The translations under genes and the position numbers were made by a program. This document shows positions 11,214 to 44,411 of a stretch of DNA of 56,884 nucleotides, in pieces. How positions within the stretch are numbered: the stretch's first letter is position 1; the number at the start of each line of letters is the position of its first letter. The notes under the pieces are model-generated. The model saw only the letters and a list, made by a program, of their open reading frames with translations, was not told where the DNA came from and ran no database searches. Source of the DNA: Kofleriaceae bacterium (GTDB taxonomy: Bacteria > Myxococcota_A > Polyangia > Haliangiales > Haliangiaceae); assembly GCA_048500355.1 (NCBI GenBank), contig JASNYD010000006.1, positions 608,211 through 665,094 of the forward strand, written 5' to 3'.

Positions 11214-11251
11214 CGGCCGCTACCGTATCATGGGCCTGCTATCTTCGTGGC

Positions 11252-12067: not shown

Positions 12068-12071
12068 GACC

Positions 12072-14564
<2,493 letters not shown>

Positions 14565-25390: not shown

Positions 25391-25774
25391 TCAGCCGGCC
25401 GTGGCCGCGATCAGCGCCAGCACCCGCGCCCGCAGCGCCTGCGGCGCCCACGGCTTGGCGATGACCTCGTCGACGACACCGGCGGCCTGGGCCGCGACCA
25501 GGGTCGGCTCGTCGTCGAAGCCGGTCACGACCACGACCCGCAGCCGGGGCCAGCGCGCGCGCGCGGCCCGGGCCAGCTCGACCCCGGTCGGCCGCCCCAG
25601 GGCCAGGTCGCTGACCAGGGCGTCGGCCGGCCAGCGCTCGAGCACCGCCAGGGCCTCGGTGGCGTCGGCGGCGGCCACCACCTCGGCGGCGCGGGCGAAG
25701 GTCCGCACCATCAGGTCGCGGTTGTACAGCTCGTCGTCGACGACCAGGATGCGCGGCGGCGGACCGTCAGCCAC
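25391..25774 (-). CDS. Response regulator receiver (CheY-like, stand-alone REC)
   Basis: [13 protein letters not shown].....ALVSDLALG...VVVVTGF....KPW has the receiver Asp and Lys positions. It overlaps the 3' end of the upstream HK gene by 8 nt. Confidence 0.85.
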
Positions 25775-27137
25775 CGCCGACCTCGTCGCCGAGGCCCGCT
25801 GCCCGTGATCCTGGCGCGACCGCGAGCGGCGCCGGGGCCTCGACCCGCGGCCGCTCCGCCGCGCCGTCGCTCGGGCCGCGCACCGGGATCGTGACCACGA
25901 ACTCGGCGCCAGCGCCGGCGCGGTTGGCCCAGCGCAAGGAGCCGCCGTGGGCGCGCACGATGTTGGCGCAGATCCACAGCCCGAGGCCGGTGCCCTCGCC
26001 GACCTCCTTGGTGGTGAAGAACGGATCCGAGATCTTCTCCATCAGGTCGGGCTTGATGCCGGGCCCCGAGTCACAGATGGTGACGCGGATCGCCGCCCCG
26101 TCGTCGACGGTCTCGATCGCGACGTCGATCCACCCGGTGCCGGCGATGGCCTGGGCGGCGTTGGTCAGGATGTTCATGAACACCTGGTTGACGTGGCCGG
26201 CGTTGCACAGCACCCGCGGCACGCCGGGCGCGATCCGGCGCCGGACCTCGACCCGGTTCTTGAGCAGGGGCCCGATCAGGTTGAGCGTGGTGTCGATGCC
26301 GCCGACGATGTCGGTCTCGGCCAGCTCGTTACCCCCGGTGCGCGCGAAGCTCTTGAGATCGGCGACGATGTCGGCGGTGCGCTCGGCGCCGGCCCGGATC
26401 GACCGCAGGAGCTTGCGCCAGTCGGCGACCAGGAAGTCGAGCTCGACCTCGGCCTTGAGCGCGTCGAGCGCGGCCCGCAGCTCGGGCGGCAGCGCCGCGC
26501 CATCGACCAGCGCCACCAGCCGCAGCAGGTCCTCCATGTACTGGCCGAGGAAGTCGACGTTGCCGTAGACGAAGTTGATCGGGTTGTTGAGCTCGTGGGC
26601 GATGCCGGCCACCAGCCGGCCCAGCGACGACATCTTCTCCTGGTGGACGAGCTGGGCCTGGGCCGCGCGCAGCTCGTCGGTGCGCTCCCGCACCTTCTCC
26701 TCGAGGTCGCCCTTGGCCCGCCGCTCGTGCTCGAGCGCGACCTTGAGCCGGCGCTGGATGCGGACGTCGGCGGTGACGTCGCGGTAGGTCTCGACCACCA
26801 CCGCCTCGCCGTCGTCGAGCTCGACCGGGGCCGCGGTCACGATGAAGGTGAGGTCCTCGCCGTCGCCGCGGCGGGCGCCGATCTCGTCGACCCGAAGCCG
26901 CCGCCCGACCTCGCGCACCTTGCAGCCCAGGCACGCCTGCTCGCAGATCTCGAGCTTGAACAGCTCGTGGCAGCGGGCCCCGGCCTTGACCTTCTCGGCG
27001 AGCTGGCGCCCGCGCAGGCCGGTCAGCGCCTCGTAGGCCTGGTTGTAGTGGAGCACCCGACGCTCGGCGTCGAGGACGACGGCGGCGTCGACGCTGCCAT
27101 CGAGGAGCTGGGTGATCTGGTGGAACAGCTTGGCCAA
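25767..27137 (-). CDS. PAS-domain sensor histidine kinase (cytoplasmic), with a 4-Cys PAS
   Basis: H-box: [21 protein letters not shown]-box: [16 protein letters not shown]-boxes: DSGPGI and GTGLGL. The N-terminal PAS carries C-x8-C-x3-C-x2-C ([19 protein letters not shown]). The ORF-track start is TTG at 27137 (see the PAS 4-Cys finding). Confidence 0.9.
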
Positions 27138-27186
27138 GCGGGGGGCTCGGGGGGCGGAGCGCGGGATGGTGCCGGATCGGTCCGGA

Positions 27187-27684
27187 TCAGGCCTCCGCCA
27201 GGAACGACAGGTAGCGCTCGGGCAGGTCGTCGAACTCCATGGTCGCGCCGCACTGCGAGCAGGCGAACTGCGGGATCTCGTGCTTGCCGCCGGTCTGCGT
27301 GACGTCGACCAGCTTCTCCTCCTCCTGGCCGCAGCGGTCGCACACGTAGGGCGCGAAGAAGGAGCGGATGCGAGCGTTGCCGCGGAAGTTGTAGATCATG
27401 TTGAGCTGGGTCACGATCGCCGGCGAGCAGTGCGAGAACGACAGCTCGGTGACGTGGGGCAGATCGCGGACGAAGTTGACCCACTCGCGCACGCCGCAGC
27501 TGTTGATGCGGCGGACCTCGCCGAGCTGGAACGCCACGGCGCCGCGCAGCCGCCGCCGCAGCTCGACGAAGTCGGCGTTCTCGTCGATCTCCCCCACGAA
27601 CTCGACGGTGGTCAGGCCGGGGCGTTCGCGGATGCGCCACGACAGCGCGACCGGCTCGGGCCCCCGCACGTCCGCCGTCGCCAT
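27187..27684 (-). CDS. STAS-like (anti-sigma-antagonist fold) domain fused to a C-terminal C4 zinc ribbon
   Basis: GGAGTGAGG RBS. STAS-like core: ...[15 protein letters not shown]...[22 protein letters not shown]...[15 protein letters not shown]. Zinc ribbon: CDRCG...CSQCG. It is a paralogue of 33748..34695. Confidence 0.7.
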
Positions 27685-27688
27685 CGCC

Positions 27689-28612
27689 TCACTCCATCCG
27701 CTCGGGCGACTTCTCGAAGTGCTGGCGGACCTCGGTCCGCGCCGCCTCGTCGAGCGACGCCGGCTCGATCAGCACGTCCTTGACGTCGAAGCGCACCGGC
27801 TCGGGGCTGGCGAAGACGCCGCGCTTGACGACGCGGCCCATGCGCCCGGCGAGGCCCTGGTAGGCGGCCTTCGACGGCGAGGCCCAGCCCGAGATCGCGC
27901 CGCCGCCGCCGAAGCGGGTCACCGCGGTCCCGACCGAGGCGACCGTCGCCGCCGGCACCTTGGCGTTGACCTGGACGAAGGCGGGGTTGGGCACCGCGCC
28001 GGTGTCGAACAGCTTGGCCAGGCCCTTCTGCGAGCCGATGGGCGCGAACACCGCCTGCGCGCCCTTGTACGACGCGACCTCGGCGACCGCGGCCGTCAGG
28101 TCGGGCTTGCCGACCCGGCTGGCGAAGAAGCCGGCGTCGACCTCGGACTCGAGCATGGCGTTGTCGACGAAGCCGTTGTCGTTGCAGCCGGTCTGCACGA
28201 ACGCCAGCTTCTTGCCCTCGAGCGCCTTCATGTCGCCGCCGGCGCCCGAGAACAGGGCGTAGGTGCGGGCGCCGCTGCCGCCGATCTGGGCGTTGGCCAG
28301 CAGGTTCCAGCCCAGGTTGGTGGCGTAGCACTGGGCGTCGACGATCGCGAAGTCGACGCCGGCGCTCTTGAGGGCGCCGAACGAGGCGAACGACTTGGCC
28401 TCGGTCTTGACCCCGGTCTGGGCCTCGATCGCCTTGGCCAGGCCCTGGACGTAGGACAGGCGGTCCTGGGCGGTGCCGAACTCGACCGACGGCGCGTAGA
28501 TGCCGATCACCAGCTTGCCGGGCGCCGGCTGGGTGGTGCCGGGACGGACCACCAGGGCGACGGCCAGGGCGACCAGGCAGAGCGTCGGGATGATGATGCT
28601 GAGCTTGCGCAT
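27689..28612 (-). CDS. Periplasmic substrate-binding-like protein (PhnD/SsuA-type fold) with signal peptide
   Basis: AGGAG RBS. Signal [22 protein letters not shown]. Its stop is 4 nt from the next gene start. Confidence 0.7.
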
Positions 28613-28631
28613 GGTGTGCTCCTGGGTGCCG

Positions 28632-31283
28632 CTAGTAGCCGTAGATCCGCTTCTTGGCGTCGATCCACTTCTGGAGATCGCGCGCGCCGGCGACCCGGCC
28701 CGACGCCGAGCGCCAGGCCTCGTAGGCGTCCTTGGGCCGCCCCGCCTGGTCGTAGAGGATGCCGAGGTTGACCAGCGCCTCGGGCGGCTGGCCGCGCAGC
28801 GCCTCGAGGGCGCCGATCTTGCTCTTGTCGAGCGACAGCACCGCGCGGTTGTTGACCAGGCGACGCTTGGCGTCGTCGCTGGCGAAGCGCTCGGCGCTGT
28901 CGAGGGCCTTGGCCGCGGGCCCGGTGCGGCCGTTGCGCCAGTGGTCGAACGCGACGTACTCCCACGACGACGCGATCAGGTCGCGGACCTTGGTGCTGAA
29001 GGCGCCGGTGGCGCTGCCGAGCAGGCGGGTGAAGGTCGCGGCCGCTCGTTCGCGCAGGGTGGCGTTGTTCGAGCGGTAGTCGGCGTAGGCGCCGAAGAAC
29101 TCGGTGCCGACCTTGGCGTAGGGCGCCTTGAGGTACGCGGCCTGGTTGCCCTTGGCGGCGAGCTGCTTGAAGTACTTGCCGGCCTCGGCGGTGTCGCCCT
29201 TCTCGAGCAGGGCCAGGGCGTAGCTGAACTCGAAGGCCGCTGGCTCGGTGCCCTTGAGCAGCGAGGGCTCGCGGGTCGCGCGCTCCAGGTCGGCCACCGC
29301 CTCCGCGTCCTTGCCGGCCTTGATCGCCCGCCAGCCGCGGCGGAACAGGGCGAGGGCGAGGTTGCGCTTGGCCGCGGGCGCCACCTCCGGCGACTGGGCG
29401 GCGAAGCCCACGGCGATGCCGAGCTTCTCGACCGCCTCGTCGAGCTTGGTGTCGACCAGCAGCGGCGCCCACTCGGTGTAGATCTCGGCCTTCATCAGGT
29501 TCGCCTGGTTCTTGGTGGCCTCCTCGTCGGCCTCCGCGAAGTGCTGGGCGGCCCGCGCCTTGTCGGGCTTCTTCGCGCACAGGTGGGCGCGGCCGGCCAG
29601 GCGGTTGTAGAGCATGGAGTAGCCGCGGCGGTTGTCCTTGATGCGGTCGAGGTAGCGCAGCCCGCCGTCGCAGTCGCCGCGGTCGATGGCCAGGACCGCC
29701 AGGTTGAGCGCGACCATCGGCGAGCGGTCGTCGACCTTGAGCGCCTCCTCGAGGAAGGCGGCCGCGGTCTTGCCGTCACCCTTGGTGAAGGCGCCGGCGG
29801 CCTGGGCGTTGATGGTCTCGACGAGCGCGCGCCGGATCTGCAGCTCCCTGGGTCGCAGGGCCACCGCGGCCTCGAAGCGCTGGCGCGCCACCACCAGCTT
29901 GCCCTGGTTGTACTGGGCCTTGGCGCTGACCAGGTAGAGCTCGGCGGCGAGCTCGGGCGGCGCGCTGGCGAACGCCTTGCCGGCGATGAGCTGGTCGGCG
30001 GTCTTGGCGGCGTCGCCGTCGCGCCGGGCCGCCAGGTAGGCGCCGCCGAGCTCGATGCCGAGGTCGAAGCTCGACGGGTCGAGCTGGCGGCCGGCCTCGA
30101 GCTTCTCGATGGCCAGCGCCAGGTTGGTGTTCTGGGCGCCGGTCGACGGCATGCGGCGGTAGGTCTTGCCCAGCCGCACGCTGAGCTCGCTGGCGCCCGC
30201 GCCGCCGCGCATGAGCTTCTCCGCCTGCAGGTAGGCCGCCAGGGCCTGGCCCCAGTCGCGCTCCTGGAAGTAGGCGTCGCCGATGAGGATGTAGCCGCGG
30301 GGCTCGTTCTTGCGCTTCTTCAGGTACTCGTTGGCGGCCTGCCGCGCCCGCTGCGGCAGCTTCTTGGCCAGGTACGCCGAGCCGAGGTTGAAGTAGACCG
30401 AGCCGTTGCTGTCGATGTTGCGCGGGTTGCCCTGCAGGCGCTCGCACACGGTGATGGCCTGGTCGAACTTGCGCAGGCCGGTGTAGGCGGCGCACAGTCC
30501 GATGTCGGCGTTGGGCTGGGCGTACTGGGCCTTGCCGTGCTTGCGGACGACGGTCTCGAACTCCTTGACCGCGCGCTCGTAGTCCCGGTTGGCGGCGTCG
30601 TGCTGGCTCTCGCGCACCGCCATGCGGCCGCGCGCCAGGTACGAGAAGCCGAGCCGGATGCGGGGCAGGACGTCGCGGCTCTCGCGATCGGCGGGCCGCG
30701 CCGCCAGGTACGCCTCGTAGGCGGTGATCGTCTTCAGCGGATCGCGGTTGAAGTAGAACTCGCCCAGGATCTGCTGGTTGGAGAACAGCGAGGCCCGCTT
30801 GGCCACCGCCTTCTCGGCGACCGCGACCGCGCCCGGCTTGTCGCCGGTCGCCCACAGGAGCAGCGCCTCCTGCTCGAGGACCTCGGCGGCCTCGGGGTGG
30901 GTGCGCTTGGCCACGGTGCGGATGAACTCGAGCCCGCCCTTGTAGTCGGCCTGGATGATGAAGATCGCCGCCCGCTTGCCGTAGGCCTCGGGCGGGACCT
31001 GGGTCGGGGCCGAGCGGATGGCCGAGTCGAAGGCCGCGGCGGCGCGTCGCCAGTTGGCCTCCTCGAAGTAGCGATCGCCCTCCTTCAGGTCCTCGGCCAC
31101 GTCGGCGACGGCGGTGCCGGCGGCGAGGAGGACGAGCACGAGCCCGAGGGCGGCGGCCCAGGTGCGGGCCAGGCCGCGCGTGGCGCAGGACGTTCGCGTT
31201 GGTTCGTTCACGGGTTCCTCGTTCACGGGTTCCTCCACGGGGGCCGTCGCGGCCCGGGCCTGCCAGCGCTCAGCGTTGCGCAC
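28632..31283 (-). CDS. Secreted TPR-repeat protein (~880 aa); start uncertain (GTG at 31283 or downstream GTG giving MNEPTRTS...)
   Basis: Signal/TM ARTWAAALGLVLVLLAAGTAVADVA. Many TPR-like units follow. A 15-bp tandem duplication (EEPVNEEPVNE) sits at the 5' end. Confidence 0.8.
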   Translation of the reverse strand: MRNAERWQARAATAPVEEPVNEEPVNEPTRTSCATRGLARTWAAALGLVLVLLAAGTAVADVAEDLKEGDRYFEEANWRRAAAAFDSAIRSAPTQVPPEAYGKRAAIFIIQADYKGGLEFIRTVAKRTHPEAAEVLEQEALLLWATGDKPGAVAVAEKAVAKRASLFSNQQILGEFYFNRDPLKTITAYEAYLAARPADRESRDVLPRIRLGFSYLARGRMAVRESQHDAANRDYERAVKEFETVVRKHGKAQYAQPNADIGLCAAYTGLRKFDQAITVCERLQGNPRNIDSNGSVYFNLGSAYLAKKLPQRARQAANEYLKKRKNEPRGYILIGDAYFQERDWGQALAAYLQAEKLMRGGAGASELSVRLGKTYRRMPSTGAQNTNLALAIEKLEAGRQLDPSSFDLGIELGGAYLAARRDGDAAKTADQLIAGKAFASAPPELAAELYLVSAKAQYNQGKLVVARQRFEAAVALRPRELQIRRALVETINAQAAGAFTKGDGKTAAAFLEEALKVDDRSPMVALNLAVLAIDRGDCDGGLRYLDRIKDNRRGYSMLYNRLAGRAHLCAKKPDKARAAQHFAEADEEATKNQANLMKAEIYTEWAPLLVDTKLDEAVEKLGIAVGFAAQSPEVAPAAKRNLALALFRRGWRAIKAGKDAEAVADLERATREPSLLKGTEPAAFEFSYALALLEKGDTAEAGKYFKQLAAKGNQAAYLKAPYAKVGTEFFGAYADYRSNNATLRERAAATFTRLLGSATGAFSTKVRDLIASSWEYVAFDHWRNGRTGPAAKALDSAERFASDDAKRRLVNNRAVLSLDKSKIGALEALRGQPPEALVNLGILYDQAGRPKDAYEAWRSASGRVAGARDLQKWIDAKKRIYGY

Positions 31284-31299
31284 CGGTGCTCGCCGGTGC

Positions 31300-32988
31300 T
31301 CAGAAGACCTTGCCGATGACGAGCGTGATGTCGTCCTTGCGGATGTTGTCGCCGAAGAAGTTGGCGGCGTCGGTCACGACGGCGTCGCGGATCTCCCCGG
31401 CCTCGAGCGCGGCCGCCCGCCGCACCGAGGCCCGGAAGCGCTTCTCGCCGTACTCCTCGCCGCCGCTCGACTCGCACTCGACGATGCCGTCCGTGTACCA
31501 GACCAGGATGTCGCCGGGCATGAGCTCGGTGGTCTTGACCTCGTACTTCGACTCCTTGAGGTCGCCGAGCCGGTTGCCGCGGATCATCAGCGAGCCGAAC
31601 TCGCCCTGCCCGCCCTCCGAGGTCCGGTACAGGTAGGGGAAGTTGTGGCCGGCGTTGGCGTACGTGATCGTGCGCCGGCGGGTGTCGATGACCGAGGCGA
31701 AGCAGGTCATCACGAACTTGCGCTTGGCGCTCTGGTAGATCGCCGAGTTCATGATCTCGAGCAGCTTGGCCGGGTCGACGTTGTCGCCGTTGACGGCGCG
31801 GGCGACGTCGCACGCCGCCTTGGCCGCCGCCGTGATCATCGCCGACGGCACGCCGTGGCCGGTGACGTCGCCGATCACGACCAGGACCTTGTCGCCGACC
31901 ATGTCGTGCCACGTCCACCAGTCGCCGCCGCACTGCGACGCCGGCTGGAAGTAGCCGGCGAAGCGCAGCGTGCCCTTGTCGACCGGATCGTGGGTCGGCA
32001 CCAGGGTCTCCTGGATCGTCCGCGCCACCTCGAGCTCCTTCTCCATCGTCGCCTTCTCGGCGGTCTGCTGGAGCAGCACGAGGAGCTGGTCGGCCATGAA
32101 GTTGAAGTTCTCGCCGAGCAGGCCGAGCTCGTCGGTCGACTTGACCTCGACGCGGGCGGCCAGATCACCGCGGGCGATCTGGTCGGCCTTCCACGCCAGG
32201 AGCTTGATGGGCTTGGAGATCTGGACGCCCTGGAAGATCGCGAGCAGGGTGCCGATGAGCACGAACAGCGCGCCGAAGGCGCCGGTGCGTAGCGCGGCCT
32301 TGCGCGCCTCCTCGTCCTTGAGCTTGGCGCTCTCGCGGGCGAAGGTGTCGACCGGCGACAGGTCGTAGCCGAAGACCACGTAGCCCTGACGGTTCTCGCC
32401 CGGGTCGTCGGCCGCGGCGGCGGCCGGGCTCCAGCCGACCTGCTCGCCCGAGAACACCGGGTAGGCGAACAACAGCAGCTTGCCGTCCTCGCCGGCGGTC
32501 CAGTCGAGCGAGACGCTGATCTCGGGCTCGGTCGCGGCGGCGCGCCGCTTCCACTCCTCCAGCACCTTGGCCCACGACGCGTGCTTGACCCGCTCGCCCT
32601 CGACCTCGCCGGCGGCGTCGCAGCGGTCGTCCTTGCGCCGGCAGTACTTGATGAGGTTCTGGACGCGACCGACGACGTAGACCAGCTTGAGCTCGGCGTC
32701 GTGCTTGAGGGTGTCGTCGACGATCTCCTTGATCTCGACGTCCTGGGTGTTGATGAAGTACGAGCGCAGGCCCTGGCCGAAGAAGATCGTGTTGGTCTCG
32801 CCCTTGCTCTCGAGCTGCTTGCGGTACTCGGTGATCTTGTCCTTGGCCGCGCGATCGTAGGCCTCGCGGATGTTGCACGCGTTCAGCAGACCGAAGCCCA
32901 CCACCGTGAGGAGGATCAGGAACGTGGTGGTCAAGATCATCTTGACCGAGATGCTCAAGCCGCCGCGCTTTGCCATTGGCCATGCCAT
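31300..32988 (-). CDS. Membrane sensor PP2C-family protein phosphatase (SpoIIE/RsbU-like) with HAMP domain
   Basis: N-terminal TM, an extracytoplasmic region and a second TM ([17 protein letters not shown]), then HAMP ([43 protein letters not shown]), then PP2C motifs (GGDWW...[14 protein letters not shown]...YANAGH...WYTDG). Confidence 0.85.
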
Positions 32989-33158
32989 GTTACGGCGTCT
33001 GGTCGGAAGGGGTCAACGAAGCGTCCCCGCGACCGGTCGGTCCATGTCCGGTGTAAAGTTCCACATGCGCCGATGTGGGTGTCCCGCGCGCACCGCCGCG
33101 CGCCTCGGCCGTCGGCGCCAGGGGTCGCATTGGCGAGCGCGCGACGCGCTCTGCTACG

Positions 33159-33725
33159 ATGCCGGGGATGGAGTCCCACCCCGCGCTGACCCAGTTCCTG
33201 ACCGAGTTCAAGCGCGTGGCCAGCGCCATCGTCGACAGCTACTTCATCGTCGACACCGAGCGCCGCATCGTCGACTTCAACCGCGCGTTCTTCGCGATGC
33301 TGCCGCGGCAGGTGGCGCGCGGCCTCAAGGGCAAGCGCTGCTTCGAGGTCATCGAGCTCAACATCTGCCGCAGCGAGTGCATCGCCCAGCAGTGCTGGAC
33401 CGACAACCGACACGTCCGGCTCGACGAGATCAGCGGCAAGGTGCTGGGCGAGCCCGACGCCAAGGAGCTGCGCTTCATCCTGTCGGCGGTGCCGATCACC
33501 GACGAGAGCGGCCAGCACGTCGGCGCCCTCGAGATCCAGCGCAACGTCACCGACGAGGCGGTGGTCCAGGTCAAGTACCAGGAGATGCTCGAGAACGAGG
33601 CCCGCGAGCGCGAGCGCCTCGCCAACCAGATCCGCGCCCGCACCAAGGAGCTGCTCGAGACCAACCAGCTCCTGCTCAAGACCCAGAAGGAGCTCCTGTC
33701 CTACAAGAAGGGCCTCTCGGCCTGA
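33159..33725 (+). CDS. Stand-alone PAS-domain protein with 4-Cys motif and C-terminal coiled coil
   Basis: It is homologous to the N-terminal PAS of the kinase at 25767..27137 ([15 protein letters not shown] versus [15 protein letters not shown]). The Cys motif is [21 protein letters not shown]. The start may be ATG 33159 or 33168. Confidence 0.65.
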
Positions 33726-33747
33726 GCGCCGGGTGCCCCCCCCGGGG

Positions 33748-34695
33748 CTACTTGCCGCTGAAGAGCAGGAACGCCAGCACGCCGATGGCCGCGAGCAGCA
33801 CGACCACGAGCACGTAGATCACGGCGCTCGACTTGGGCTGGGTCAGCGCCGGGCGCTCGGCGGGGACCGGCGTGGAGAAGCTGCCGCTGCCGGGGTTGGT
33901 GCCGGGCGAGGTGAAGTTGCCCGGCCGGCTGCCCGGGTTGGTGCCCTGGAACGAGCCCACCGGGCGCATGCCGGGGTGGGTGGTGGTCGTCACCGGCGTC
34001 ATCGACGGCCGGCTGCCCGGCTTGGCGGTGATCGACGGCGAGCTGCCGCTGGGCCGCGAGATCGACGGCAAGGACGGCACGCTGGGCAACGACGACACCG
34101 ACGAGCTGTGCAGGCTCGAGGTGCCGGTGCGCGAGCGGATCTTGGACTTCTCGCCGTTGTCACCGGAGGCGAACTCCTTGATGACGCCGTTGATCTTGTC
34201 GGGCTCGGCGATCTTCTTCTGGTTCGACAGGAACGCGAAGTACGAGTCGGCCATGTCGTCGAAGTCCATGACCAGATCGCACTCGTCGCAGCGACAGGTC
34301 GGCGGCTCGTGCGGCCCCGAGCCCATGTCGGCCGCCTCGACGAGCAGCACCTTCTCCTCGTCGCACTCGGGACAGAAGTACGGGACGTAGAAGCTCTTGA
34401 CCACGCCCGACCCGGTGAAGTTGTTGACGAGGTTGATCTGGGCGACGATCGCCGGCGAGCACTCGACGAGCACCGCGCGGGTCGCCTGGGTCTCGAGCTT
34501 GCCGAGCCAGTTGACCCAGTCGCGCACGCCACACGAGTTGATGCGCTCGATCTCGCCGAGATCGATCACCGCCGTACCCGCCGGGATCTTGTCGGTCAGC
34601 GCGGTGAGCTCGTTGTCCTCGTCGATGACACCGCTCAGCTTGACGTAGCTGACGTCGTCGCGGTGGTGGACCGACGCCTGAAACTTCTGGCTCAT
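33748..34695 (-). CDS. STAS-like plus C4 zinc-ribbon protein with Ser/Pro-rich linker and C-terminal TM anchor; paralogue of 27187..27684
   Basis: GGAGACG RBS. Shared motifs with the paralogue: [38 protein letters not shown]...[15 protein letters not shown]-terminal TM: [22 protein letters not shown]. Confidence 0.7.
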
Positions 34696-34712
34696 TGCGT
34701 CTCCGTCGACAC

Positions 34713-34735
34713 GTAATTCACGTAGCCGTGATTAC
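34713..34735. promoter_or_regulatory. Inverted repeat gtaattcacg-tagc-cgtgattac in an AT-richer 140-bp spacer
   Basis: 9/10 matching arms with a 4-nt spacer, sitting 18 nt upstream of the STAS-TM gene ATG (34695) and ~100 nt downstream of the giant TPR stop. It could be an operator, or a terminator for the TPR gene. Confidence 0.3.
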
Positions 34736-34833
34736 ACCTGTACCCTAGAACCTTCAACTCGCAAAGCATATCGTGATCGCGCCAGCGGGATCCACTCCAT
34801 GGACGTCGATCGTGGCCCGTCCCCCGCCTCGTG

Positions 34834-37800
34834 TCACGCCTGGTTCGGGGCAGCGGTGAGGTAGTCGCGTAGGCGCTGGTAGTCGTCGGACAGATAGAAG
34901 CGCACCAGGTCGGCCCCGCCCAGCACCGCGCCCAGGGCCACGGTGGCGTCGTGAGACAGGAGCATCTCGCCGGTCAGGCGCGCGATCATCCAGGTGGCGG
35001 CGGCGAAGTCGTCGCAGGCGAGGAGCCCGCCGCGCTTGGCGGCGCCCAGCATGCCGTCGATCCAGGCGTCGCCGTCGACGTCGCGGCCCCAGTTCTGGTG
35101 GCGCTCGATGACCTTCTGCGCCCGCTTGGACAGCCCCTTCACGAACTCGTTGGTCGGCGCCGGCCGCTCGCCCTCGGGCAGCAGCAGCGACTTCATGAAG
35201 TTGCCGAGCTCGGATCGCTGGCGACGGCCGAGGTGGTGGAGGAAGGCGTACCCGCCCCGCAGCGCCTCGAAGGCCCAGCCGAGGAGGAAGCGGCGCGGCC
35301 CGTCGCCCTCGCCGACCAGCGACCGGTCGATCACCACCAGGCGGCGGGGCGCCGCCACCAGCGCCACCAGGCCGGGCACGCGCTCGCCCACGAAGACCTC
35401 GGCCTCGATGGCGTCGAGCCGGGCGATGTCGGCGACCGCGACCTTGAGCCCGGGGTCGTCCATGCCCTGTACCGGGATCAGGTTCTCCCCCAGCATCGGC
35501 GGCGGGTACAGGCCGCCCAGCTCGGCCGCGGCCGCCGCCAGCACCTCGCCGAACGGATCGCGCGCCGCCGTCGTCACCAGCAGCCGCATCCGCATCTCGT
35601 CGTCGAGCGCCCGCCGCATCGGGTGGTAGGGCAACGACGCCCGCACCTTGGCGGCGGCGCCGCGATCGGACTCCTCGGCGAAGCCGAGCTGCTCCATCAC
35701 CGTCAGCGCCCGCGCCGCCCGCTCCGGCTCGCCGACGCGGGTGTAGTACGACGACAGGAGGCGGTAGGCCATCGCGTTGTGGATGTCGCGATCCACGACC
35801 TTGCGCAGCTCCGAGATCGCCTTGCCCGGGTCGTCGATGGCGTAGATCTCGGCCAGCGCCACACGATCGGGCGGGCTGTCGTCGACGCCCAGGATGCCGC
35901 GGTAGGCCTCGATCGCCGCCGGCCGGTCGCCGGACGCGAGGAGGATGCGGGCCAGGCCGCGCTGCAGCGGCACCGCCGCCGGCGGCCCGCCCTTCTCCAT
36001 CGCGGCGTGGGCGGCGTCGATGAGCAGGCCCTCGGCGCCGCGCTGGTCGCCGGCCTCGGCGGCGCGCCGCGCCAGGGCCAGGGCCGGCGGCGCGTAGCCC
36101 GGATCGTACTCGCTGGCCCGGCGGTACTGCGAGGTCGCGCCGCGAGGATCGCCCGAGGTCTCGGTGATGCGCCCGCGGTAGTAGTAGTAGCGGGCCAGGT
36201 TCTCGGGCGAGATCGCCGAGCCCGGCGCCGCCGCCAGCTCGATCACGCGATCGATCGCCGCCCGGGCGTCGGCGTGGCGCCCCAGCAGGTAGTGCTCCTG
36301 GGCCAGGCGGTAGTAGGCCTCCTCGTGGATCGGGTCGATGCGGATGACCTCGCGCAGGACCGAGATCGCGCGGTGGGGCTCCATCTCGCAGTCGGCGTGG
36401 ATCTCGGCCTGCCGCATGAGCGCGCCGACGCGCACCGCCTGCGACACGTCGCTGTGGTTCAGGAACTTGACGATGGCGTCGACCGCGTGGCTCCACCGCC
36501 GCATGTTGAGGTGGAGCGTGATCATCGCCGACAGCACCTCGAAGTCGTCGGGCGCCAGCGCCACCGCCTCGGCGTAGAGCTGCTGGGCCTGATCGAGGTC
36601 GCCCTCGCGCTCCTTCATGCCGGCCTGGGCGACGCGGACCCGGGCCAGGAAGGGCCCGGCGTCGTCGCGCTTCTTGTAGAGCTTGTCGAGCTCGCGGTAG
36701 ATCGCGTCGAAGTCCCAGGCCTCGGGGTGCTTGCGCTGCAGGTCGAGCAGGCCGTCGAGGGCCGACAGGTTGTTGGGCTTGATCTCGAGGGCGACGATCA
36801 GGCTCTCGGCGGCGCCGCGGGCGTCGCCGGTCATGTGGGCGACCACGCCGCGCCGGCGATAGAACTCGCTGCGGGTGTTGGGATCGCCCTCGCGCATGGC
36901 CTTGACCGCCAGCGCCTGGGCCAGGGGCAGCGCCCGCTGCCACTCCCCGGCGTCGAAGTAGTGCTCGAACAGGGCCTGGTTGGCGGGCAGGCACTCGGGA
37001 TCGACGGCGAGCGCGCTCTCGTAGTAGTGCATCGCCCGGTCGGGCTGGCCGAGGCGCGACTCGTAGATGCGGCCGATCTGGGCGAAGACGCCGGCCCGCT
37101 CCTTGTCGTCCTGCCACAGCTTGACCTCGAGCTCGAGGGTCTGGATGACCCGCGGCCAGTCCTCGCGCCGGCGGTAGAGGTCGCGCAGGCCGTGGACCGC
37201 CGGCAGGCACGAGGGCGAGGTCTTGATCGCCGCGTCGTAGTAGCGGATCGCGTCCTCCTCCTTGCCGAACTTGGCCTCCATCACCGAGCCGCACTTGAAG
37301 TAGAGCAGCGCCTTGAGGTTGCGATCGGTGGTGACCCGGATCTGGCGGCGGGTGACGTCGACGAACTCGGCCCACTGCTCCGTCGACTCGTAGATGCGGC
37401 CCAGGGCCTCGAGCGCCTCCTTGTTGGCGGGCGCGATCTCGAGGATGCGCTGGTAGTGCTCGACCGCGCGCGACTCGTCGCGCAGGCCCTCCTCGCTGAT
37501 CTGGGCGATGCGCTTGTGCAGGGTGGTCGCGGCGTCGCCGGCGGGGGCGGTGGCCAGGCGGTGGCGCAGGACCTCGACCAGCTTGCCCCAGTCGTGGTTG
37601 CGCTCGTACCAGCGCTCGAGCGCGTCGAGGGCCTCGACGTCGGACGGATCGATGTCGAGGATGTGCTGGTAGAGGCGGGCGGCCTCGCCGAAGTCGCGCA
37701 TCTTGGCGGCGGCGACCCGGGCGGCGCGGCGCAGCGACTCGAGGCGGCGCTCGTCGTCGCGGGTCAGGCCGGCCCGCTTCTCGTAGACCCCGATGAGCCC

Positions 37801-40800
37801 GCTCCAGTCGCTCTTCTGCGAGAAGATCGACTCCAGGAACTTCACGCTGGTGTCGTTCTCGGGATCGATCTCGACGACCTTGACGTAGGACTGGGCCGCG
37901 GCGTCGAGCTCCCCCAGGTACTGGAGCTGGACCTGGCCGCGGCGGGCGTAGAGGTCGCCCAGGCGGTAGGCCCGCGACGCGCCGCTCTCCACCAGGTCGA
38001 TCGCGCTCTGGTAGAGCTTCATCGCCGACGCCCAGCGCTCGTGCTTGTAGCAGAGCTTCTCGAGCGAGGTGAAGACCTCGCGGTTGGCGGGGTCGGCGAG
38101 GAACGACGCGGTGAAGGCGGCGATCGCGCCGTCGGGGTCGCCGCGGTTCTGCTTGACCTGGGCGATGCGCCCGTAGAGCTGGGCCCGCTCCAGCTTGTCG
38201 ATCGTCGAGTCGGCGCGGGCCTCCAGCACCCGCATCAGATCCTTGTCGCGGCCGAGCCGCTCGTACAGCCGCTCGAGGGCCTCGAGCGCAGGCACGTACT
38301 GGGGGCGGCGCTCGAGGATCGACTCGTAGGCGAGCGCGGCGTCGGCGGGCTTGGCCAGCTTCTCCTCGCGGAGCTGGCCGAGCCGGGTCAGGATCGCGAG
38401 CTGGGCGTCGACGTTGCCCGCCGGCGCCGCCGCCAGCTCGCGCTCGAGCGCGCCGGCCAGGTCGGCCCAGCGCTCGGTGCGCTCGAGCAGCCGGGTCAGG
38501 TCGCGGTGGCTGTCGGTGCTGGCGCTGCCCTGGGCCGCGAGCTGGTGGAAGCGGATCGCGGTCTCGACGTCGCCGAGCTTGTCCTCGGCCATGCGCGCCA
38601 GCGACGCCGCCAGCCGCGGCCGCTCGGCGGCCGGGGTCAGCTCGATCTCGGCCTGCCGGATCTCGGCCAGCTCGGTCCACTCGCCCAGGCGCTCGAGGGC
38701 CTCGGCCAGGACCCGCAGGTTGGCCAGGGTCCGCGGCGCGCGCCGGTAGGCGATCGCCAGCTCGCGCCAGCGATCGTGGCCGCGGGCGACGCGGTCGACC
38801 CCGGCCAGGGCGGCGGCGTCGGCGGCGTCGATCGAGAGCGCGTCGTCGTAGGCGGCGAGCGCCCGCTCGGGGTCGCGCCCGTCCTCGTACAGCTTGCCGG
38901 CCTCGAGCTGGATGGCGAGGCGCCGCGACGGCTCGACGCCGCGGGTCAGCTCCTGCTCGAGCAGCGCCAGCAGGCGATCGTTGCGGCGGGCCCGGCGGTG
39001 GAGCTGCTGCAGGGCGCGCAGCGGCTCGACGGCGCGATCGTCGGCGCGCGCGGCGCGCTCGTAGGCGGCCAGGGCCGCGGCGTCGTCGTTGCGCCGGGTC
39101 TCCTCGAGCTGGCCGATCTCCAGGTACATCTGGGCCTGGCGGCGGACGTCCTTGACCAGCTCGGCGACGCGGGCCCGTAGCTCGATCGCCTTGTCCCATT
39201 GCCGGCCGTGCTCGCACAGCCGCGCCAGCTCGTAGGTGACGTCGGGGTCGTCGGGCCGCAGGGTCTGGGCCTGCTCGAGCACGGCGCGGGCGCGCCGGGT
39301 GTCGCTGATGTGCTCGGCCAGGATCTTGCCGTGCTCGCGCAGGAGCACCAGCTTGAGCTCCTCGGAGGTGCACAGCGCGGTGAGATCGGACAGCGTGCTC
39401 GACAGCTCGCGCCAGCGCTCGGCCTTGCGGTAGATCGCGGCCAGCGCGCCCTTGGCCGCGGGATCCTGCGGCGCCTGGCGCGAGGCCTGGAGAAGGAGCT
39501 CCTCCGCCTCCAGCGGCCGGGCGCGCGCGAGCTCGAGGGCGCCGGCGGCGAACAGGAGCGCGGTGGCGGCGCGGCGGTCGCGGGCCGACTGCGCCGCCGC
39601 CCGGTAGATCTCGCCGAGCTGGGCGCGGTCGCGCTGGCGACGGGCGAGGCGCGCGAGGTGGTCGAGCTCGCTCTGGCGCGCCGGACCGGGAGCGCGCTCC
39701 GACGACGCGACCTTGAGCAGCTCGAGGGCGCGGGCGACGTCGCCCAGCCGGGCCTCGATGACCAGCGCCGCCCGCCGGTTGCCGGCCCGGGCGCCGTCCT
39801 TGGCCTGGGCCAGGAGGTGGCCGACCAGGGCCTCGGGCTCGCCGGCGCGCAGGCGCTCGAGCGTGAGCAGGCCGCTGGCCGTCCGGGCACCGGACGTCGC
39901 GAGCTGGGCCAGCTCGCCGGCCATGGCCAGCCCGTGGGCGTCGGCGATCTCGAGGGCGCGCCAGGCGTGGGCCGCGGACAGGCCGCCGGCGGCCTGCGAC
40001 TCGGCGAGGCCACGGCGCGCGGTCACGGCGTCGCCCCAGCGGCTGGCGCGGTGGCCGACCCGGGCCATGGCCAGCCGCGCCAGCACCGGGCCGTAGCCCT
40101 CGTCGCCGGCGGCCGAGGCGTAGCCGGAGACCGCGGCGCCCAGGTCGCCGGCGGCGAGCCGGGCGTCGGCGAGGGCGTGGCGGGTGGCGGCCTCCTCGCG
40201 GCGGGCCCCGGCGTCGGCCTCGAGCAGCTCGAGGCGGCGCTCGTGCAGCGCGGCCACGGCCGCGACGTCGGCGCCCCCGGGCAGGCGCTGGGCGGCGTCG
40301 AGGGCGAGGTCGATCGCGCGCAGCCAGTGCACCGGCGCGCCGCGGCCGCGCTCGGGGCGGGCCAGGGCGGCCTGGACGATGGCGAGGGCGCCGGCGGCGT
40401 CGCCGAGGCGGTCGAGCCGCACGGCGGCCGCGTCGCACGCGTCCTCGGGCAACGCGCCGGGCGCCGCCGCCGCCGCCGCCAGCGCGGTCGCCAGCTCGCC
40501 CCACTGCCCGGCGCCGGCGCGGGCCAGGGTGCCGAGCGCGCGCATCTCGGCCGCGATCTCGGGGTCACCGCTGACCTCGCCGCCGGCGGACGCCACCACC
40601 GCCGCCGCCCGGACCGGATCGCCGAGCGAGTACAGCCAGGCCTCGACCAGGTCCCGGGTGAGGTGGGCGCGCTCGCGGGCATCGGCGAGCGCGCCGATCA
40701 TGCGGCCCGCGGTCTCGAGCGCCTTGGGATCGGGCGCGGCGATGCCGTGCGACACCAGGAGGCGGGCCGCCAGCGGGTGCTTCTCGGCCAGCTCGAGGTA

Positions 40801-41265
40801 GCGGGCGGCGTCCTCGGGATCGTCGAGGATGTCGGCGGTGATGAGCGAGAGCCGGACGTTGATGTCGGCGAGCCGCTCGTCGGCCTCGGCGCCGCCGCTG
40901 AGGAGCGCCTCGGCCTCCGCCGCGAGCAGCTCGACCACCGAGTCGATCAGCGCCGCCGAGCCCGCGCCCATCACCCGCCGGGTCAGGTCGCCGGTCGAGT
41001 CGTCGTCGGGCGGCGGCTCGGCCGCGGCCCGCGGCGGCGGCGGCGCAGGCGCGGGCGGCGCGACCACCGCGGCCGGGGCCGGGGTCCCGGTCGCCGGCGG
41101 CGCCACGCGCGGCGGCGCGGGCGGGACGGGCAACGACGGCAGCGCCCCCTCGGCGGTGCGTCGAGGCAGCGCCGGCAGCGGTGGCGGCCGCGGCGGGCGG
41201 TCACCCGAGGGGGGTTCGGCCATCGCAAGTATCGTATCAGTGGTCCTCTCCGCTTCGCCACTCAC
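34834..41265 (-). CDS. Giant TPR-repeat protein (2143 aa), Pro-rich N-terminus
   Basis: One uninterrupted ORF with high third-position GC. The N-terminal ~100 aa are Pro/Ala-rich and precede tens of TPR-like helical hairpins. It is divergent from 41400..42338. Confidence 0.85.
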   Translation of the reverse strand: MSGEAERTTDTILAMAEPPSGDRPPRPPPLPALPRRTAEGALPSLPVPPAPPRVAPPATGTPAPAAVVAPPAPAPPPPRAAAEPPPDDDSTGDLTRRVMGAGSAALIDSVVELLAAEAEALLSGGAEADERLADINVRLSLITADILDDPEDAARYLELAEKHPLAARLLVSHGIAAPDPKALETAGRMIGALADARERAHLTRDLVEAWLYSLGDPVRAAAVVASAGGEVSGDPEIAAEMRALGTLARAGAGQWGELATALAAAAAAPGALPEDACDAAAVRLDRLGDAAGALAIVQAALARPERGRGAPVHWLRAIDLALDAAQRLPGGADVAAVAALHERRLELLEADAGARREEAATRHALADARLAAGDLGAAVSGYASAAGDEGYGPVLARLAMARVGHRASRWGDAVTARRGLAESQAAGGLSAAHAWRALEIADAHGLAMAGELAQLATSGARTASGLLTLERLRAGEPEALVGHLLAQAKDGARAGNRRAALVIEARLGDVARALELLKVASSERAPGPARQSELDHLARLARRQRDRAQLGEIYRAAAQSARDRRAATALLFAAGALELARARPLEAEELLLQASRQAPQDPAAKGALAAIYRKAERWRELSSTLSDLTALCTSEELKLVLLREHGKILAEHISDTRRARAVLEQAQTLRPDDPDVTYELARLCEHGRQWDKAIELRARVAELVKDVRRQAQMYLEIGQLEETRRNDDAAALAAYERAARADDRAVEPLRALQQLHRRARRNDRLLALLEQELTRGVEPSRRLAIQLEAGKLYEDGRDPERALAAYDDALSIDAADAAALAGVDRVARGHDRWRELAIAYRRAPRTLANLRVLAEALERLGEWTELAEIRQAEIELTPAAERPRLAASLARMAEDKLGDVETAIRFHQLAAQGSASTDSHRDLTRLLERTERWADLAGALERELAAAPAGNVDAQLAILTRLGQLREEKLAKPADAALAYESILERRPQYVPALEALERLYERLGRDKDLMRVLEARADSTIDKLERAQLYGRIAQVKQNRGDPDGAIAAFTASFLADPANREVFTSLEKLCYKHERWASAMKLYQSAIDLVESGASRAYRLGDLYARRGQVQLQYLGELDAAAQSYVKVVEIDPENDTSVKFLESIFSQKSDWSGLIGVYEKRAGLTRDDERRLESLRRAARVAAAKMRDFGEAARLYQHILDIDPSDVEALDALERWYERNHDWGKLVEVLRHRLATAPAGDAATTLHKRIAQISEEGLRDESRAVEHYQRILEIAPANKEALEALGRIYESTEQWAEFVDVTRRQIRVTTDRNLKALLYFKCGSVMEAKFGKEEDAIRYYDAAIKTSPSCLPAVHGLRDLYRRREDWPRVIQTLELEVKLWQDDKERAGVFAQIGRIYESRLGQPDRAMHYYESALAVDPECLPANQALFEHYFDAGEWQRALPLAQALAVKAMREGDPNTRSEFYRRRGVVAHMTGDARGAAESLIVALEIKPNNLSALDGLLDLQRKHPEAWDFDAIYRELDKLYKKRDDAGPFLARVRVAQAGMKEREGDLDQAQQLYAEAVALAPDDFEVLSAMITLHLNMRRWSHAVDAIVKFLNHSDVSQAVRVGALMRQAEIHADCEMEPHRAISVLREVIRIDPIHEEAYYRLAQEHYLLGRHADARAAIDRVIELAAAPGSAISPENLARYYYYRGRITETSGDPRGATSQYRRASEYDPGYAPPALALARRAAEAGDQRGAEGLLIDAAHAAMEKGGPPAAVPLQRGLARILLASGDRPAAIEAYRGILGVDDSPPDRVALAEIYAIDDPGKAISELRKVVDRDIHNAMAYRLLSSYYTRVGEPERAARALTVMEQLGFAEESDRGAAAKVRASLPYHPMRRALDDEMRMRLLVTTAARDPFGEVLAAAAAELGGLYPPPMLGENLIPVQGMDDPGLKVAVADIARLDAIEAEVFVGERVPGLVALVAAPRRLVVIDRSLVGEGDGPRRFLLGWAFEALRGGYAFLHHLGRRQRSELGNFMKSLLLPEGERPAPTNEFVKGLSKRAQKVIERHQNWGRDVDGDAWIDGMLGAAKRGGLLACDDFAAATWMIARLTGEMLLSHDATVALGAVLGGADLVRFYLSDDYQRLRDYLTAAPNQA

Positions 41266-41399
41266 CCCGGAGCGGTGTCGGGGAACGGAGGATGGTGCGA
41301 GGGGGCCCCCGGCGCGCGCACCCGCCGCCGCCGCCGCTACCCCGCCGGCTCCCGGCCAGGGTTTGACCGTCGCGATCGGCGTACCGTATCCTGGAGGCG

Positions 41400-42338
41400 A
41401 TGGTGGCCCCCACGCGCGCCGTGTGCGTCACCTCCAGCGTCGCGTTGCGGCGGACCCTGCGCCGCGCCTTCCACGCCACCGGGACCCAGGTCGAGTTCGC
41501 CGACGCCGTCGGCGGCGCCGATCCCGCGGACGCCGTCGTCGTGATCGATCAGCCGACCTACGCCGGCCTCGCCGACGCCGACCGCGCCACCCTGGAGCGC
41601 GGCCGCGCGCTCATCGTCATGGGCGCGTCGCTCGAGGACGAGGCGGTGCTCGACGCCATGCGCCGGGAGCGCTGGAACCACGTCATCCGCGAGGCCGAGG
41701 ACCCCGACGACGACGAGCTCGTCGTCACCTCGGTCAAGCTGTCGTCGGGCGACATCTTCGGGCTCGAGAAGTACCTGGCGTGGGGCGTGAAGGTGAACGA
41801 GGCCACGATCGACACCTACGAGGCCAAGCGCGAGGCGCTGCTCGCGGTCACCGCCTCGGCCCGCGACGGCGGCGCCCGCCGCCCCACGATCGCGCGCATC
41901 GAGAGCGTCGTCGACGAGCTGCTGATGAACGCGATGTACGATGCGCCTGCGGTGGCCACCGGCAAGGCCGTGCCCACCCCGCGCCGCATCACCGACCCGG
42001 TCGGCGACGCCGAGGCCCGCCTGCGCTGGGCCGCGGACGGTCGCTACTTCGCGGTCTCGGTCGAGGACCGCTACGGCGCGCTGGCCAAGGACGTCATCCT
42101 CGACCACCTGCTGCGCGCCCGCCAGGAGCGCGGGCGGCCGCGCGCCCCCGACGCCCCCGGCGCCAGCGGCGGCGCCGGCCTCGGCCTCTACTTCATCCTG
42201 TCGTCGGTGACGCGCTTCATCGCCAACCTCGATCCCGGCGTCCGCACCGAGGTCATCTGCCTGTTCGACCTCAAGCAGGGCGGCCGCGACGCCGACGCCT
42301 GCGCCCGCTCGCTGCACGTCTTCGGTCCGCGCGCGTGA
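41400..42338 (+). CDS. RsbW/SpoIIAB-like GHKL ATPase (HATPase_c_2-type anti-sigma regulatory factor or Ser kinase) with N-terminal receiver-like pseudo-domain
   Basis: GGAGG RBS. N-box-like ESVVDELLMNAMYDA. G2-like GGAGLGLYFILSS. The N-terminus has REC-like alternation (AVVVIDQ) but lacks the acidic pocket. Confidence 0.6.
   Translation: MVAPTRAVCVTSSVALRRTLRRAFHATGTQVEFADAVGGADPADAVVVIDQPTYAGLADADRATLERGRALIVMGASLEDEAVLDAMRRERWNHVIREAEDPDDDELVVTSVKLSSGDIFGLEKYLAWGVKVNEATIDTYEAKREALLAVTASARDGGARRPTIARIESVVDELLMNAMYDAPAVATGKAVPTPRRITDPVGDAEARLRWAADGRYFAVSVEDRYGALAKDVILDHLLRARQERGRPRAPDAPGASGGAGLGLYFILSSVTRFIANLDPGVRTEVICLFDLKQGGRDADACARSLHVFGPRA

Positions 42339-43636: not shown

Positions 43637-43637
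<1 letters not shown>
42387..43637 (-). CDS. Polytopic membrane protein, putative ABC exporter permease partner
   Basis: Internal ATG (aa 117 of ORF 42387..43985) overlaps the ATPase stop in an ATGA junction. It has ~10 hydrophobic helices. Upstream ORF sequence is Arg-rich noise. Confidence 0.65.
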
Positions 43638-44380
<743 letters not shown>

Positions 44381-44411
44381 CGGCGCCGACCCTACCAAGA
44401 AACCCGCGGCC

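Follow-up and report, generated by a model that had tools for sequence, protein, structure and literature searches.

What does a bacterial partner switch control when no sigma factor is encoded beside it? The question is raised by a gene cluster within a 56,884-nt stretch of DNA (hereafter the window) from a Kofleriaceae bacterium (GCA_048500355.1, contig JASNYD010000006.1, positions 608,211-665,094 of the forward strand). Partner switching is textbook bacterial logic, and most known examples control sigma factors. An initial annotation, made from the letters of the window, had picked out four open reading frames (ORFs) as components of such a switch: a HAMP-PP2C sensor phosphatase (31300-32988, minus strand); two proteins in which a STAS domain is joined to a zinc ribbon (STAS-ZnR), namely the soluble, 165-aa STAS1 (27187-27684, minus strand) and the tail-anchored, 315-aa STAS2 (33748-34695, minus strand); and a GHKL protein comprising a receiver-like and an RsbW/SpoIIAB-type domain (41400-42338, plus strand). 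The GC content of the window, ~75%, renders its ORF lists rich in artefacts, and genes were therefore called by GC content at the third codon position (GC3); all four ORFs are present, in frames with a GC3 of 0.94-0.97. The folds, motifs, paralogy and conserved linkage of these genes are established directly, and from them we infer, as the probable if not yet firm reading of the locus, a partner-switching-type serine phospho-switch. The GHKL protein would phosphorylate S62 of STAS1 and S54 of STAS2, the sensor PP2C would reverse the modification, and the output would be a neighbouring enzyme, with no sigma factor involved.

Two STAS-ZnR paralogues with a putative phosphosite

STAS1 and STAS2 are paralogues that share 39% identity over 149 aa (E=9e-39). 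The AlphaFold2 (AF2) model of STAS1 (pLDDT 78.6) displays the element order of a STAS domain, β-β-α-β-α-β-α, after which come β-hairpins bearing the cysteine pairs C115/C118 and C142/C145, with one more helix at the end. When this model was compared with the PDB using Foldseek the top matches were almost all STAS proteins (4hyl, SpoIIAA, TM1442, RsbV and MlaB), with transporter STAS domains and SiaC also among the structural matches. On the basis of the model, STAS1 and its paralogue are proteins of the STAS fold. At the level of sequence they are remote STAS homologues and not family members by hidden Markov model (HMM), STAS2 scoring 18.1 bits (E=0.0018) against TIGR00377, which lies below the curated cut-off of 53.45. 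The wider family is more informative. In 47 diverse STAS-ZnR members, at E<=0.01, PF13466 (STAS_2) was matched by ten and PF01740 (STAS) by eight, and one relative, P0144, exceeds the Pfam gathering score (26.2 bits against a cut-off of 22.6). A profile built from the diverse family recovered prestin-STAS, TM1442 and 4hyl among PDB sequences at only E~0.003-0.005, and spurious matches between the ribbon and C2H2 zinc fingers made up the bulk of the results of such profile searches. Many orthologues are named 'anti-anti-sigma regulatory factor' and/or zinc-ribbon protein in IMG, the former name being frequent among the 1602 homologues of STAS2. It had been envisaged at the outset that HMMs might assign the 165- and 315-aa proteins to some other fold; the model, the Foldseek results and the family-level matches all point to STAS.

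The putative phosphosite lies within an INSCG motif in both paralogues, as S62 of STAS1 (motif at aa 60-64, nt 27493-27507) and S54 of STAS2 (aa 52-56, nt 34528-34542). In the STAS1 model helix α2 (62-73) begins with S62, and it is the N-terminus of α2 that is occupied by T68 of SiaC and S58 of 4QTP (PMC7647112). Both S62 and the four ribbon cysteines are conserved in at least 90% of the 47 diverse members, whereas the residue that follows the serine, C63 in STAS1, can be Cys, Ser or Ala across the family. A CSPAIV motif is present as well (nt 27412-27429 in STAS1). In STAS1 the invariant C86 within this motif and the frequent C63 (nt 27412-27507) are located on loops that form the kinase-facing surface of the STAS domain, and it is conceivable that thiol or redox chemistry at these residues influences the switch.

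The ribbon itself, CxxC...CxxC, spans aa 115-145 of STAS1 (nt 27250-27342; C115, C118, C142 and C145, with modelled β-strands at 108-115, 121-127 and 148-151) and aa 108-139 of STAS2 (nt 34279-34374). Several zinc-ribbon families are matched weakly, and the Cys4 element may bind zinc in the manner of a zinc ribbon. In STAS2 the STAS-ZnR region (aa 1-160) is followed by a linker of ~130 aa rich in Ser, Pro, Gly and Thr, and then by a transmembrane (TM) anchor predicted at aa 292-310 (nt 33766-33822). The motif reading of the initial annotation, in which NSCG replaces DSSG and a C-terminal CxxC...CxxC follows, therefore holds for both paralogues, as does its proposal that one copy is tail-anchored in the membrane.

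An exhaustive profile search returned 4,271 representatives of the STAS-ZnR family at 50% identity, 3,320 of them at E<=1e-10. The best 150 of these 4,271 include 51 short soluble proteins, at least 44 that are tail-anchored and 38 that exceed 400 aa. These 38 mostly have ~700-750 aa, with STAS-ZnR stretches in tandem (two per protein) and a TM segment predicted near residue 400; examples are P0129, P0144, P0146 (with a weak C-terminal PDZ match), ~30 more representatives and the product of L083:7196-9457. Other fusions comprise Pkinase-FIST-STAS-ZnR (P0245, 1485 aa) and 3xFIST-STAS-ZnR (P0249, 1831 aa). A look-up of the clusters of the ~750-aa double-domain proteins gave no functional names. 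The initial annotation knew of no described STAS-zinc-ribbon family, and our searches agree: no model in Pfam or NCBIfam covers the family, and full-text literature searches (STAS with zinc ribbon and myxobacteria; partner-switching in Myxococcus) yielded no description of it.

The GHKL protein and the HAMP-PP2C phosphatase

The GHKL protein is recognized by its AF2 model (pLDDT 80.9, pTM 0.82), its structural matches and its motifs. The model shows an α/β receiver-like domain at the N-terminus and, at the C-terminus, a Bergerat domain, the ATP-binding fold that had been predicted for 41400-42338. The best full-length match identified by Foldseek is LvrC, which has a Rec+Bergerat architecture (E=1.4e-8), and the next matches are SpoIIAB, RsbW, UsfX and SiaB (E=1e-6 to 6e-4), all of which rank ahead of the CA domains of histidine kinases and of PDKs. 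HATPase_c_2 and Response_reg are matched weakly by the window protein and its relatives, HATPase_c_2 by the window protein with 20.4 bits (E=5e-4; gathering cut-off 27.4) and Response_reg by two relatives at E=3e-5 and 4e-4. An alignment of 17 GHKL sequences shows no variation at E173 and N177 of the N-box or in the G2 box, G258-A-G-L-G-L; the corresponding sites in the window are DELLMNA (nt 41913-41933) and GAGLGL (nt 42171-42188), with a G1-like VEDRYGAL between them (nt 42060-42083).

The receiver-like domain (aa ~5-100) has an invariant aspartate, D50, at the end of β3 (nt 41535-41552) and an invariant S77. The acidic pair that should follow β1, where the alignment reads V-C-V-T-S-S, and the lysine after β5 were not found in the 17 sequences. 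Retention of the aspartate makes the designation 'pseudo-receiver' in the initial annotation likely and not certain.

The phosphatase is the second enzyme of the proposed switch, and its domain matches are those of the RsbU/SpoIIE type (SpoIIE E=2.8e-42, HAMP E=7e-14). It comprises a TM segment, an extracytoplasmic region of ~200 aa, a second TM segment, the HAMP domain (nt 32083-32223) and the PP2C/SpoIIE domain (nt 31309-31893).

It could be argued that these components represent a classical sigma-factor switch. The Rec-like/Bergerat protein would then act as an anti-sigma factor, the role proposed for LvrC, and hold a sigma factor encoded at a distance; STAS-ZnR would be its antagonist, PP2C the activator, and the receiver-like domain would take its signal from a PAS-containing histidine kinase (HK) of the cluster. 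The GHKL protein does find its best structural match in LvrC, a putative anti-sigma factor under Rec control, ahead of SpoIIAB, RsbW and UsfX, and the invariant D50 together with HK and response-regulator (RR) genes in the same operon (loci L064 and L072) would fit control of Rec by HK. It should be emphasized, however, that the receiver-like domain lacks the acidic pair after β1 and the lysine after β5, and that neither the 57-kb window nor the ±8-10 kb covered in annotated relatives yielded a sigma factor gene, despite the occurrence of at least five independent gene orders. We regard this alternative as unlikely. The searches behind the latter point covered every GC3-supported ORF of the window, in none of which a sigma-70-family domain was found (the remaining ORFs among them gave only TetR, ABC, DUF4159 and similar domains), and the pre-annotated genes of L001-L004 and L083-L086, where a sigma factor was likewise not found. 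The view of the initial annotation that none is present in the window is consistent with these domain searches.

Linkage of the components across relatives

Context look-ups and a genome scan provided 78 loci, nearly all of them from metagenome-assembled genomes (MAGs) of Polyangia, Haliangiales or Kofleriaceae, with L005 being the locus of the window itself. STAS1 has a 100% identical counterpart, annotated as hypothetical, in a Kofleriaceae MAG. A tblastn synteny table revealed the same order in relatives from 100% down to ~50% protein identity: giant TPR>STAS2>PAS (mostly on the opposite strand)>PP2C>TPR>exported protein>STAS1>HK>RR. The giant TPR gene is always upstream of STAS2 in related loci, HK directly follows STAS-ZnR in nearly all, RR follows HK in most, and HAMP-PP2C is in the same operon in most. 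Fifteen loci reach beyond the start of the giant TPR gene, and in 12 of these the GHKL gene adjoins the giant-TPR/STAS2 operon in divergent orientation. The genes were initially described as a dispersed module; this does not stand, as they form one contiguous cluster that is conserved across dozens of Polyangia MAGs. All four of the genes named there are present, but other members of the cluster that are conserved to the same degree were omitted, namely the PAS-HK and RR pair, the small PAS gene and the genes of the TPR proteins.

Beyond the window type the GHKL gene stands directly beside STAS-ZnR in at least five other gene orders, at 30-45% protein identity. These include GHKL>STAS-ZnR>PAS-HK>RR (L064 and L072); GHKL>STAS-ZnR, with a 4-nt overlap, followed by PAS-GGDEF and a 1672-aa Pkinase-AAA16-TPR-GAF-SpoIIE protein (L074); GHKL upstream of a 753-aa protein with two STAS-ZnR stretches and a TM segment, and then TPR-PEGA (L083); 2xSTAS-ZnR>STAS-ZnR>PAS>GHKL (L085); and Pkinase-2xSTAS-ZnR>STAS-ZnR>GHKL (L086). 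The pair thus survives repeated rearrangement. PP2C domains, too, recur beside STAS-ZnR in two unrelated architectures, the HAMP-PP2C sensor and the giant Pkinase-AAA16-TPR-GAF-SpoIIE protein, which in L058 (1744 aa) is encoded directly upstream of the STAS-ZnR gene. The co-occurrence that the initial annotation had proposed to check is therefore apparent in the window-type loci, in the five other GHKL-STAS-ZnR orders and in the adjacency of PP2C in both its architectures.

The rearranged loci also bear on the simplest explanation of the cluster, which is that a neighbourhood has been conserved by descent among close genomes and that the four genes are not functionally joined. Most window-type loci do come from one order (Haliangiales/Kofleriaceae MAGs), such that synteny may persist by descent, and unrelated neighbours such as an ABC transporter are syntenic as well. 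Because the GHKL/STAS-ZnR pairing is kept through at least five gene orders at such low identity, however, and a PP2C of unrelated architecture recurs beside STAS-ZnR, we consider coincidental co-location to be very improbable.

The gene that follows STAS-ZnR is of particular relevance to the output of the proposed switch. In L074 the PAS-HK is replaced by PAS-GGDEF, which contains a homologous PAS region, and it is this interchange of HK and GGDEF after STAS-ZnR that provides the main argument for an enzyme as output.

Several further features of the related loci deserve mention. The giant Pkinase-AAA16(STAND)-TPR-GAF-SpoIIE proteins of ~1700 aa (L058:4495-9729 and L074:11514-16532) belong to two distant lineages, and the Hanks kinase and PP2C that they combine in a single chain could each have the STAS-ZnR serine as a substrate. 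With respect to taxonomy, L067 (JBLMXA010000535.1, labelled as an Acidobacteriota MAG) carries a STAS2 89% identical to the window copy beside a giant TPR gene, and this contig was probably mis-binned from a Kofleriaceae genome; the labelling of L066 as a Gammaproteobacteria MAG is similarly doubtful.

Organization of the cluster

The order of the cluster in the window is GHKL <> giant TPR > STAS2 >< PAS <> PP2C > TPR > periplasmic protein > STAS1 > PAS-HK > RR. The last six genes, all on the minus strand, form a single apparent operon with gaps of 4-49 nt, or overlaps. Downstream of PP2C come an 883-aa TPR protein (TPR883; 28632-31283), which matches multiple TPR families and has a TM or signal segment at aa 37-55, and an exported or membrane-anchored protein of 307 aa (27689-28612) with a hydrophobic N-terminal segment at aa 4-22. 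The latter has no Pfam or NCBIfam match and may be a periplasmic co-sensor; both genes are syntenic with that of PP2C. STAS1 is separated by 49 nt from the gene of a soluble PAS-HisKA-HATPase HK (25767-27137; HATPase_c E=7e-23, HisKA E=7e-9, PAS_4 E=1e-7), which in turn overlaps by 8 nt the last gene of the operon, encoding a stand-alone RR receiver (25391-25774; Response_reg E=1.7e-17). A second operon consists of STAS2 and the gene of a giant, cytoplasmic TPR protein of 2143 aa (34834-41265, minus strand), which matches TPR families; the GHKL gene is divergent from the latter. Tail-to-tail with STAS2 is the gene of a small PAS and coiled-coil protein (33075-33725, plus strand; PAS_9 E=1.6e-6), whose true start may lie downstream of 33075. 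No TM segment was predicted in the giant TPR, PAS, HK, RR, STAS1 and GHKL proteins.

The small PAS protein and the N-terminus of HK contain paralogous PAS regions (30% identity over 172 aa, E=4e-23), and the cluster accordingly holds two paralogous pairs, each a STAS-ZnR gene beside a Cys4-PAS gene. The Cys4 motif, C-x8-C-x3-C-x2-4-C, is located at aa 89-107 of the PAS protein (nt 33339-33395, plus strand) and aa 56-72 of HK (nt 26922-26972, minus strand), and is kept in all 56 PAS-only homologues and in 40 of 64 HK homologues. The motif raises the possibility that Cys4-PAS is a metal, Fe-S or redox-sensing subtype of the domain. The small PAS gene also adjoins STAS-ZnR genes in L085 and L088, and in L026 and L031 (~3970-4600) it is co-stranded with the cluster, indicating that the single-gene inversion is not fixed.

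The pairing of a zinc-ribbon membrane protein with a large TPR protein resembles GltJ and GltI of the Glt gliding machinery of Myxococcus, and the likeness ends there. In GltJ the zinc ribbon is N-terminal (C5/C8/C28/C31), with a linker and then a GYF domain behind it (PMC11135422), whereas here the ribbon follows STAS and no GYF domain was detected. Membership of the gliding machinery was thus rejected.

At its RR end the cluster is preceded by AcrB (22286-25348, plus strand). In the relatives L001-L004 (12.5-19 kb) DUF4159 and GATase1-like genes closely follow RR. The equivalent genes of the window occupy 10850-14564 and are separated from the cluster by a TetR/OEP/AcrB efflux block (18825-25348), an arrangement suggestive of a local insertion or rearrangement. 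At the other end an ABC ATPase (43637-44398) and a multi-TM permease-like ORF (~42387-43640, minus strand; a longer ORF at 42387-43985 overlaps the ATPase frame) are convergent with GHKL. These genes (42387-44398) are syntenic in Kofleriaceae loci and not in distant ones, and are probably mere neighbours of the cluster.

Discussion

The partner-switching interpretation of the initial annotation is supported by the data presented here: the two STAS-ZnR proteins are assigned to the STAS fold, the GHKL protein is modelled with a Bergerat fold, and the genes co-occur across relatives. In the mechanism that we propose, the receiver-like/RsbW-like GHKL protein would bind and phosphorylate the conserved serine at the N-terminus of α2, S62 in the soluble and S54 in the membrane-tethered copy. 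The HAMP-PP2C membrane sensor would remove the phosphate upon an envelope signal, and may be assisted in this by the exported TPR883 and 307-aa proteins. STAS-ZnR, in its unphosphorylated or phosphorylated form, would most likely bind and modulate the adjacently encoded enzyme, which in the window is the soluble Cys4-PAS HK feeding a single-domain receiver and in L074 a PAS-GGDEF cyclase; this would parallel the action of SiaC on SiaD. The tail-anchored STAS2, the giant TPR protein and the small PAS protein may constitute a membrane-localized second branch, or a scaffold.

A number of observations weigh against this reading. Neither STAS1 nor STAS2 has a Pfam STAS match (PF01740, PF13466) at threshold, and indeed the window STAS proteins and the GHKL protein all fall below the thresholds of Pfam and NCBIfam. 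The register in which S62 aligns with S58 of SpoIIAA and S56 of RsbV, such that INSCG occupies the D-S-S-G position, comes from hhalign comparisons of the family profile that had negligible probability, and serves as an illustration of register only. The G1 box of the GHKL protein reads D223-x-x-G226 instead of D-x-G-x-G, and ATP binding or kinase activity is possibly impaired. GHKL is absent from its conserved position in three of the 15 loci, and about a dozen related clusters (L036, L039, L040, L042, L043 and others) lack the PP2C/TPR/periplasmic trio; the three enzyme classes are thus not obligatorily co-encoded. Phosphorylation of the STAS-ZnR serine is, moreover, a prediction, the putative regulatory link from STAS to HK is drawn from gene order, and a sigma factor could be encoded elsewhere in the genome.

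Some of the same observations would be explained if there were no phospho-switch, and STAS-ZnR were instead a constitutive adaptor or scaffold, akin to MlaB and SLC26 STAS, that assembles TPR, PAS and a catalytically dead GHKL protein at the membrane, with PP2C acting on other substrates such as the targets of the Ser/Thr kinases that are abundant in myxobacteria. The non-canonical G1 box and the many clusters without PP2C are consistent with such a role, as is the presence of transporter STAS domains among the top structural matches, while the Hanks-type kinases that are fused or adjacent to STAS-ZnR (P0245, L086, L058 and L074) offer a possible alternative kinase. A purely structural function, however, does not readily account for a serine that is present in at least 90% of diverse members at the exact position of the SpoIIAA, RsbV and SiaC phosphosites, for the invariance of the catalytic N-box Glu/Asn and of the G2 box in GHKL, or for the tight and often overlapping GHKL-STAS-ZnR gene pairs, an arrangement characteristic of RsbW/RsbV-type kinases and their substrates. 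We therefore think it distinctly doubtful that STAS-ZnR is a constitutive scaffold.

The serine phospho-switch with an enzyme output, which we continue to favour, can be extended into a broader and more tentative proposal, to which we give limited credence. STAS-ZnR might represent a new, widespread class of phospho-switch adaptor that gates neighbouring PAS-domain enzymes (histidine kinases and diguanylate cyclases); its soluble, tail-anchored and duplicated TM forms might nucleate giant TPR scaffolds at the membrane, and the Cys4 ribbon, C63/C86 and the Cys4-PAS partners might add redox or metal input, the whole being a hybrid of partner switch and two-component system without a sigma factor.

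If the mechanism is correct, the cluster would represent a new non-sigma branch of partner switching, wired into two-component and c-di-GMP signalling in Polyangia, the social, predatory myxobacteria that are almost unexplored experimentally. It would also provide a function for thousands of 'hypothetical proteins', and singles out S62/S54, C115/118/142/145 and E173/N177 of the kinase as candidate residues.

Currently known systems resemble that of the window to different degrees. RsbU/RsbV/RsbW and SpoIIE/SpoIIAA/SpoIIAB of Bacillus share with it the three protein classes, the D/N-S-x-G loop with SPA(I/V), and a Bergerat kinase; in contrast to these systems, the cluster described here has no linked sigma factor, a Cys4 ribbon on STAS, one STAS copy that is tail-anchored and a receiver-like domain on the kinase. 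In SypE/SypA of Vibrio fischeri and HsbR/HsbA of Pseudomonas a receiver domain is coupled to an RsbW-like kinase and a PP2C, and the outputs that STAS controls are not sigma factors but, for instance, biofilm polysaccharide or a diguanylate cyclase. One protein unites kinase, receiver and PP2C in these systems, and STAS stands by itself as a single domain, whereas here the components are separate proteins and STAS is accompanied by a zinc ribbon. LvrC of Leptospira (PDB 9qih), the best full-length structural match, has the same Rec and Bergerat architecture as the GHKL protein and is similarly linked to a histidine kinase. The sequence identity is ~16%, however, no STAS-ZnR partner has been described for LvrC, and its receiver is canonical and phosphorylated by LvrB (PMC13269768), in contrast to the receiver-like domain of the GHKL protein, from which the acidic pair and the Lys are missing.

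The closest analogue is SiaABCD of P. aeruginosa, which likewise consists of a two-TM HAMP-PP2C (SiaA), an RsbW-like kinase (SiaB) and a STAS-like switch (SiaC), and has an enzyme and not a sigma factor as its output. SiaA and SiaB set the phosphorylation of SiaC at T68, at the N-terminus of α2, and SiaC activates the diguanylate cyclase SiaD (PMC7647112, PMC8457831). The window PP2C is a partial match to SiaA (NF038263, E=4.7e-28), SiaB and SiaC are among the structural matches of the GHKL and STAS-ZnR proteins, and the PAS-GGDEF after STAS-ZnR in L074 recalls SiaD. The system of the window is nevertheless an analogue and not a member of SiaABCD, and its PP2C is not an SiaA orthologue: the window contains no DUF1987 or GGDEF, and the PP2C reaches 98 bits where the equivalog cut-off is 700. 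SiaC belongs to DUF1987 and lacks a zinc ribbon, and SiaB lacks a receiver-like domain. The Sia operon has four genes, none for TPR, PAS or HK/RR proteins; in the window the adjacent enzyme is a histidine kinase. Precedents thus exist for each ingredient, be it non-sigma partner switches, HAMP-PP2C sensors or Rec-Bergerat proteins, and the cluster does not embody a categorically new principle. What this study adds to these known systems is an undescribed STAS family with an integrated Cys4 ribbon, which is both large and unannotated, in a poorly studied phylum.

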